From IMG/VR virus record IMGVR_UViG_3300008050_000019: DNA of 64,000 nt; one strand, written 5' to 3'. Position 1 is the first letter of the stretch, and each line of letters begins with the position of its first letter. A program made the position numbers and the translations under genes. Below the pieces are notes generated by a model. It was given only the letters and a program-made list of their open reading frames with translations, did no database searches and had not been told where the DNA came from. Shown here piece by piece: positions 36,290 through 36,412 of this stretch. The stretch comes from a virus.

Positions 36290-36326
36290 CCTTTTATAAT
36301 ATTACGTTAGAGTCTCAATTAACACA
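36290..36326 (-). promoter_or_regulatory. promoter-like element, upstream copy of a direct repeat
   Basis: Transcribed strand TGTGTTAATTGAGACTCTAACGTAATATTATAAAAGG; 85 bp from its near-identical copy; upstream of the MoxR-vWA-MVP genes. Confidence 0.45.
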
Positions 36327-36374
36327 GTTAATTTTCAATGAATTATCAAAAATTTCTTTATTAATTGACTCCAC

Positions 36375-36412
36375 CCTTTTTATAGTATTACGATGAAATC
36401 GCAATTAACACA
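36375..36412 (-). promoter_or_regulatory. promoter-like element, second copy of the direct repeat
   Basis: Transcribed strand TGTGTTAATTGCGATTTCATCGTAATACTATAAAAAGG. Confidence 0.45.

Follow-up and report, generated by a model that had tools for sequence, protein, structure and literature searches.

Among phage promoters that occur in series, the early trio of phage T7, A1, A2 and A3, consists of three strong tandem promoters that are served by a bacterial-type RNA polymerase and followed downstream by the RNase III site R0.3. In phage T4, middle promoters are recognised through the MotA box, (a/t)(a/t)TGCTT(t/c)A, centred at -30 and lying 11–13 bp from the -10 hexamer, while promoters of the phage N4 type are formed by a DNA hairpin with a 5–7-bp stem and a 3-nt loop, just upstream of +1. 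On the RNA side, a hairpin at the 5' end, as in the stabiliser of the Escherichia coli ompA 5' untranslated region, is a geometry known to protect a transcript against 5'-end-dependent decay. Tandem promoters and 5' hairpins are themselves well known, and the array described here is a variant of known things rather than a new kind of element, a finding that is solid and not surprising.

The window, that is the whole stretch of 64,000 nucleotides (64 kb) analysed here, derives from a large phage, carries six tRNA genes and has nearly all of its genes on the - strand. Metagenomic contigs of up to 308 kb encode a MoxR protein identical to that of the window. No close relative was present among 50,697 phage records, in which a BLASTN search with positions 35500–37200 returned no match. 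The array occupies the gap ahead of the gene for a MoxR-like AAA_5 ATPase (434 aa, 34867–36171, - strand, ATG at 36171). This gap extends from 36172 to 36430, measures 259 nt and contains 23.6% GC compared with 40% for the window, and a small ORF adjoins it on its upstream side. The MoxR gene is followed on the same strand by a gene for a DUF2201_N metallopeptidase-like and VWA-like protein (477 aa, 33433–34866) and then by one for a major-vault-protein homologue (858 aa, 30704–33280; MVP shoulder 3.8e-19, Vault_3). A terminator scan of 35900–36800 gave 0 terminator-like sites, with none between the array and MoxR. Ahead of the vault gene there is a weak terminator-like hairpin (33395–33426, - strand; 12-bp stem, poor U tract) and after it a strong 16-bp terminator (30653–30689), an arrangement that makes it plausible that MoxR, DUF2201 and vault genes form, in this order, one operon. 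Between the weak hairpin and the vault gene lies a promoter-like TTGTAA-18-TAAAAT (33342–33371, - strand), at which the vault gene may have a transcription start of its own. A full-text literature search that paired vault or major vault protein with MoxR, with phage or with jumbo phage turned up no paper describing a cassette of this kind.

Within the gap, a 34-nt element is present in three in-register copies on the coding (-) strand, with element starts spaced 86 and 85 nt. Element A, TGTGTTAATTGCGATTTCATCGTAATACTATAAA, spans 36379–36412, with a GTGTTA box at 36411–36406, a -10 hexamer TACTAT at 36387–36382 and a predicted start at about 36375 (G). Element B, TGTGTTAATTGAGACTCTAACGTAATATTATAAA, spans 36293–36326, with GTGTTA at 36325–36320, TATTAT at 36301–36296 and a predicted start at about 36289 (A). 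Element C, TGTGTTATATGTAATTTCGTCGTAATAAAATAAA, spans 36208–36241, with GTGTTA at 36240–36235, TAAAAT at 36216–36211 and a predicted start at about 36204, which would give a 33-nt leader with a Shine-Dalgarno AAAGGA before the ATG at 36171; all three starts are read from sequence only. The preliminary description had quoted two of these copies, A (36412 to 36375) and B (36326 to 36290), and was right about their strand and about their distance from the MoxR ATG, which comes to 119–241 nt. It had missed the third, C (36241 to 36208), which lies nearest to the ATG and ends 36 nt from it, and its figure of 36/38 shared nucleotides was too high, since A and B agree at 31/38 aligned positions (82%), A and C at 27/38, and B and C at 23/38. 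With three copies and with conservation in relatives, the observation is nonetheless real and stronger than first described. A degenerate 34-nt consensus allowing up to 3 mismatches has 3 matches in 64 kb where 0.01 would be expected, all of them in this array. The whole repeat units are about 72% identical (63/87), a divergence to which Tandem Repeats Finder is blind, and at min_score 30 the program did not report the array. An exact-pattern scan of IMG/VR with the 27-nt core returned 14 single matches, approximately the chance number, and no multi-copy match.

The three copies all have TGTGTTA at positions 1–7, while positions 26–31 read TACTAT, TATTAT and TAAAAT in A, B and C, so that T1, A2, A5 and T6 are kept. 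The T1, A2 and T6 of a sigma-70-type -10 hexamer are thus found in every copy, and TAnnAT is found at all orthologous sites. The distance from GTGTTA (positions 2–7) to TAnnAT is 18 nt, which is normal for a promoter of the sigma-70 family. GTGTTA is the most conserved feature of the element; it matches TTGACA at 3/6 positions (T, G and final A), and a standard sigma-70 scan, which needs 4/6, calls none of A, B and C. In the earlier assignment of boxes, CGTAATA(T/C)TAT was likened to a -10 and does contain the likely hexamer. Its proposed -35, TTGCGA/TTGAGA at positions 9–14, does not hold up, being only 14 nt from TATAAA, replaced by TATGTA in copy C and conserved in no orthologous locus. An extended -10 is likewise not supported in the window copies, which lack TGn and have CGTAA at -17 to -13; TGA does precede TAGAAT or TAGGAT in several GC-rich relatives. 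Directly upstream of box B lies the block ATTGAAAATTAA (36328–36339, - strand), with an identical block upstream of box C (36243–36254). Its position, -50 to -39, is like that of an UP element, and in both hairpins described below the block makes up the 3' half of the apical stem. Peptides encoded by the units were considered and rejected, as the 19-aa GTG ORF after A and the 13-aa ATG ORF after B give unrelated products, with the conserved ATTGAAAATTAA block in different reading frames in the two units.

The preliminary description had left the function of the copies between tandem promoters, an operator pair and a long leader. The evidence favours tandem promoters and, in part, the leader, in that transcripts from A and B would have structured leaders of about 200 and 120 nt. 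An operator pair is not supported by a box that is not palindromic and whose inverted partners vary between units in a compensatory fashion, differences that point to base pairing rather than to protein half-sites. The one palindromic candidate, AATTAAC-tgt-GTTAATT, is present at copy B only. As for CRP/FNR (TGTGA-N6-TCACA) or NtcA (GTA-N8-TAC) sites, the second half-site 6–8 nt after TGTG is unconserved across aligned A, B, C and orthologues.

On this basis the gap is probably occupied by a tandem array of three clade-specific promoters of the sigma-70 family that drive the MoxR/DUF2201/vault operon. By analogy, the closest counterpart is the T7 A1-A2-A3 trio, which similarly places three tandem promoters within a few hundred bp into one operon and has a long hairpin in the leader RNA. 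The T7 promoters are spaced by about 125 bp rather than 85 bp and have canonical, TTGACA-like -35 boxes; in T7 the hairpin comes after the last of the three promoters, whereas those of the array are interleaved with the promoters; and the T7 trio belongs to the leftmost early region, whereas the array serves a MoxR/VWA/vault cassette inside the genome. Compared with the canonical sigma-70 promoter (TTGACA-17-TATAAT, also found as tandem P1-P2, e.g. in rrn), the elements share a bipartite form with a free spacer of 17–18 nt, the -10 T1/A2/T6, the upstream A/T-rich block and the correct orientation and distance to the gene. They differ in a -35 box of the form GTGT(T/A)A, usually preceded by T, which with its three matches of six is missed by the scan, and in belonging to a phage that encodes a sigma factor without a complete region 4.2. 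T4 middle promoters resemble the elements in having a phage-specific upstream box in place of the -35 together with a sigma-70-type -10, and here too the reader could be a phage protein. The array box TGTGTWA, however, has a different sequence, spans -37 to -31 and is 18 nt from the -10, which does not fit a T4-type middle promoter, and no MotA or AsiA homologue was seen.

The bipartite motif extends well beyond the array. The pattern GTGT[AT]A-N17/18-TAnnAT has 13 matches in the window against 0.82 ± 0.94 in dinucleotide shuffles, a count to be read in the knowledge that the pattern was drawn partly from the window copies themselves. Eleven of the 13 are on the coding strand, and 10 of these 11 fall in non-coding DNA, which makes up 8.7% of the window, at 6–211 nt upstream of a start codon. 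At three window genes (promoter matches at 5924, 29414 and 45933; gene starts at 5889, 29379 and 45898, all - strand) the start codon comes just after TAnnAT, the hexamer ending 5–6 nt before it, and in a related locus (L018; promoter match 7663, start 7701) the hexamer ends 7 nt before the start codon. A -10 that ends 5–7 nt before a start codon places that codon at the expected +1, which would imply leaderless mRNAs for several genes of the phage clade, and such a geometry would be hard to explain unless the hexamer truly sets the start. A promoter-like GTGTAA site at 38515–38486 precedes a gene pair that includes the sigma gene. In the short leader that follows another GTGTAA promoter, at 25283, a perfect 7-bp palindrome, AAGGAAT-A-ATTCCTT (25224–25254, - strand), includes a Shine-Dalgarno-like AAGGA just before the ATG and may sequester the ribosome-binding site. 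A literature search on the GTGTAA box found nothing relevant.

Homologues of the MoxR protein at 30–60% identity are encoded in many metagenomic contigs, and a protein scan of IMG/VR contigs gave no relative. MoxR and DUF2201 recur together in many of the related contigs, with a vault-protein homologue seen in L020/L021, and in the closer relatives examined synteny covers the sigma factor, small genes, a MopE/VWA protein, MoxR, DUF2201 and the vault protein. Two contigs with an identical MoxR protein (L015, L016) have a gap 100% identical to that of the window and hence add no information. In a homologue at 60% identity the only copy, TGTGTTAATTGATTCTCTACTGTATTATGAT, stands 46 nt ahead of the start codon, and homologues of 44–54% identity have one copy each, with the register kept and different spacers. 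Altogether, the motif occurs on the sense strand ahead of the MoxR homologue in 15 of 41 related loci, roughly 60–160 nt upstream of the start codon, compared with 1/41 for the reverse-strand control and 0/41 for the coding-sequence control; the independent tests of the motif are the later loci L024, L026, L027, L030, L038–L047 and L084. Motif-bearing loci span 30–63% GC, and four more distant freshwater relatives retain GTGTAA-~16/17-TATAnn.

Ten related loci have two tandem copies 80–94 nt apart and belong to two sub-clades (L038/39/40/43/47/84 and L041/42/44/45). In the first of these, GTGTAAC promoters stand in tandem 82–84 nt apart, about 160 nt upstream of the MoxR homologue, and an alignment of its six sequences shows GTGTAAC, TATTAT and TAGAAT to be invariant while the spacers between them vary freely, a pattern of conservation that reads as the signature of a bipartite promoter. 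A scan of IMG/VR for the P2 region of these relatives gave 0 matches. The recurrence of tandem copies in ten loci indicates that multiplied promoters before this operon are no accident of the window phage, and suggests that these phages need the cassette in large amounts or at a particular time. As the motif is also frequent and sense-biased throughout the relatives' loci, it appears to be the general promoter type of the clade.

The array is tied together at the RNA level by two long hairpins that connect neighbouring copies, which the earlier suggestion of a long leader had passed over. According to an inverted-repeat search, every TGTG box has a pairing partner some 45 nt further upstream. 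In sense RNA, hairpin H1 (36305–36378, - strand) has 27 pairs including 4 G-U, at -16.8 kcal/mol and z -3.5; its 5' arm begins at +1 to +3 of the predicted A transcript and its 3' arm takes in the A/T-rich block and the TGTGTTAATTG box of element B together with part of that element's spacer. Hairpin H2 (36218–36292, - strand) has 26 pairs including 3 G-U, at -22.7 kcal/mol and z -6.0, with a 5' arm that begins at about +1 of the predicted B transcript and a 3' arm drawn from element C, with its A/T-rich block, its TGTGTTATATG box and part of its spacer. The -10 hexamer is unpaired in both. The antisense strands of H1 and H2 fold much less stably (-8.1 and -15.8 kcal/mol, z -1.5 and -4.2), there are 7 G-U pairs in sense against 1 in antisense, and the whole leader as sense RNA has z -4.35. 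Compensatory changes distinguish the outer stem of H1 from that of H2. Pairing is kept although the two hairpins differ in sequence, as where GGAGUC/GACUCU of H1 corresponds to ACGGAAU/AUUUCGU of H2, and CAAUUAA/UUAAUUG of H1 to CAUAUAA/UUAUAUG of H2. Of 17 predicted transcripts, 9 have their first paired nucleotide at +1 to +3.

For the two-promoter sub-clade, the RNAalifold prediction has the same arrangement, with hairpins at +3 of P1 and at +3 of P2 and a long hairpin that encloses the -35 box and spacer of P2. The evidence for covariation comes from the two paralogues in the window and from six related sequences elsewhere. In the related sequences 36 pairs were counted, with standard pairs in 95.3% of cells. 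Both sides have changed in 9 pairs, against 3.8 ± 1.3 in shuffles (0/500) and 0–2 with slid partners, although the contrast with the slid controls is inflated by the derivation of the tested structure from the same six-sequence alignment. The four freshwater relatives fall in a different sub-clade and were unusable for enlarging the covariation alignment. Hairpin covariation in the relatives is accordingly supportive of a sense-RNA structure, not conclusive. Rfam 15 gave only chance-level microRNA and snoRNA matches (13–18 bits against cut-offs of 38–86).

Intrinsic terminators were rejected for H1 and H2, which are AU-rich and are followed by UAACGUAAUA and CGUAAUAA, respectively, in place of the GC-rich stem and U tract of such a terminator. 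Hairpin promoters of the N4 type were rejected as well, since the hairpins here have some 26 pairs, come after +1 and form preferentially in the sense RNA. The similarity to the ompA stabiliser is closer, since the hairpins start 0–3 nt from the predicted 5' end; as modelled, they are much longer, with about 26 bp interrupted by internal loops, and extend into the promoter that follows, unlike stabilisers of this type. A role as 5'-terminal stabiliser or processing site seems the most likely one, and we infer that it is the 5' arms that evolved towards pairing, the promoter sequence downstream of them being constrained.

About 1 kb upstream of the gap, the phage encodes a sigma-70-family factor (283 aa, 37148–37999, - strand) that aligns with primary sigma factors over regions 1.2 to 4.1 and then ends, lacking the C-terminal tail and, from the helix-turn-helix of region 4.2, the first helix. 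It was aligned with three homologues (L018 3904–4728, L020 2538–3374, L022 47–883) and with E. coli region 4. The phage factor and its three homologues lack the 'TLEEVG' helix and the tail that follows 'IEAKAL', and their residues at the positions with which E. coli sigma-70 reads the -35 all differ. Relatives have kept the shortened C-terminus (FPI(T/S)xxEL...). This factor is a candidate reader of the promoters, and its shortened region 4.2 fits a non-canonical upstream box, a fit that proves nothing. The possibility that the sigma factor is split, its region 4.2 being encoded by the 93-aa ORF at 36699–36980, was also considered and rejected, as neither BLASTP with E. coli region 4 nor Pfam at E ≤ 10 gave a match.

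The reduced sigma factor opens an alternative in which the promoters are real and recognition of the TGTGTWA box falls not to sigma region 4 but to a separate activator encoded by the phage, by 'sigma appropriation' or a co-activator scheme like that of T4 MotA/AsiA, the three boxes then timing expression of the operon. The missing first helix and tail of region 4.2, the altered -35-reading residues in all four factors and the departure of the box from TTGACA are in its favour, and the retention of the box across phages of 30–63% GC, which probably have different hosts, suggests a phage-borne reader. We nevertheless regard such an activator as improbable. No candidate was found, the small ORFs between the sigma gene and the array having no detectable DNA-binding domain; the spacing of 17–18 nt is what a normal sigma region 4 needs; and a GTGTAA site also stands before the gene pair containing the sigma gene, so that host polymerase or something else has to start the cascade. 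At least some of the sites must accordingly be fired by host polymerase or by read-through. Still less probable, in our judgement, is a structured leader RNA that is itself the functional unit, with a single start in use, either C or a sigma-70 consensus match, TTCACG-16-TATAAT (36425–36452, - strand), which overlaps the stop codon of the upstream ORF. From its consensus match, this site upstream of element A is a possible further start, and it could be the main one, making A to C elements of the leader; copies A and B could equally be relics of duplication that are tolerated rather than used. A and B would on the leader explanation be conserved chiefly as 3' arms and linkers of the two hairpins, and the hairpins could be sites of processing by RNase III or another enzyme, protein-binding sites or an antitermination-type element. 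It draws on hairpins that are strongly non-random and specific to the sense strand, on the compensatory changes in the relatives' hairpins enclosing the second promoter, and on the canonical-like promoter just upstream of copy A. Yet what stays unchanged across A, B, C, the upstream regions of other genes and the orthologues is precisely the pair of promoter boxes with a constant distance between them, the -10 hexamer is left unpaired, the same bipartite motif stands before many unrelated genes that have no such hairpins, and Rfam has no match.

The three direct repeats and the inverted repeats in a gap of such low GC relative to the window would also be compatible with a replication origin or iteron array, possibly primed by transcription like the origins of T7 or T4, and known phage origins can hold tandem promoters (T7 phi1.1A/B; T4 oriF/oriG). 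This is nonetheless a very remote prospect, as the period of 85–86 bp is far from the ~20 bp of iterons, cumulative GC skew is monotonic with no turn at the array, the same motif is spread over many gene starts, and no replication initiator gene is adjacent.

Under the preferred reading, tandem sigma-70-family promoters, the phage clade would use generally a promoter class composed of a (T)GTGT(T/A)A box, a free spacer of 17–18 nt and TAnnAT, and all three promoters would face into the MoxR, DUF2201 and major-vault-protein operon, with transcription beginning at about 36375, 36289 and 36204. The footprint of RNA polymerase is usually about 75 bp, so a spacing of about 85 bp should allow each site to be occupied at once and three polymerases to load together. 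The array would in this way multiply initiation on the operon, in the manner of T7 A1-A2-A3. Transcripts from A and B would open with an interrupted hairpin of about 26 bp, the 3' arm of which would be the RNA copy of the upstream region of the next promoter. Most likely, the array is a neat but fairly ordinary means of driving a gene cluster hard.

A more far-reaching version, which we think unlikely, takes the array as a conserved cis-regulatory module of an uncultured large-phage clade, joining GTGTWA promoters, transcript folding and graded or timed control. In this version the non-canonical box would be read by the phage sigma factor without the normal -35-reading helix-turn-helix, or by an unknown partner, and the transcript of each upstream promoter would fold over the RNA copy of the next. 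If it were true, different starts would give rise to different 5' structures and different fates (processing, stability, translation), and the phage MoxR/VWA/vault-protein cassette would be under graded or timed control.

For the tandem-promoter reading, the practical yield is a usable promoter consensus, (T)GTGT(T/A)A-N17/18-TAnnAT, for widespread uncultured large phages of marine and freshwater environments, which helps to define the operons and the candidate leaderless genes of these phages. It also marks the MoxR/DUF2201/vault-protein cassette as a unit that would be under unusually heavy, conserved transcriptional input. In addition, a sigma factor without a complete region 4.2 beside a non-canonical box in the -35 region offers a testable case of altered promoter recognition.

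Other repeats were observed in the window. A MopE/VWA protein of 621 aa (39667–41532, - strand) contains seven putative metal-binding repeats of the MopE type and a VWA domain; its repeats are visible in the DNA as six 52-nt repeats (40279–41305), and in relatives the gene keeps synteny with those for the sigma factor and MoxR. An 87-nt intergenic repeat family has three copies (232–318, 8535–8621 and 28468–28554) of 63–87% identity, each built on a long near-perfect palindrome, CCAGGCTCAC(C/T)CCT(A/G)ATAAAC ... GTTTAT(T/C)AGG(G/A)GTGAGCCTGG, with some 40 nt of AT-rich sequence at its centre; the copies may serve as terminators in both directions or be some other kind of structured element. 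Finally, a 117-nt tandem duplication with 70% identity (8048–8281, + strand) lies inside a 552-aa ORF (6865–8523), which is one of the few + strand genes in the window.
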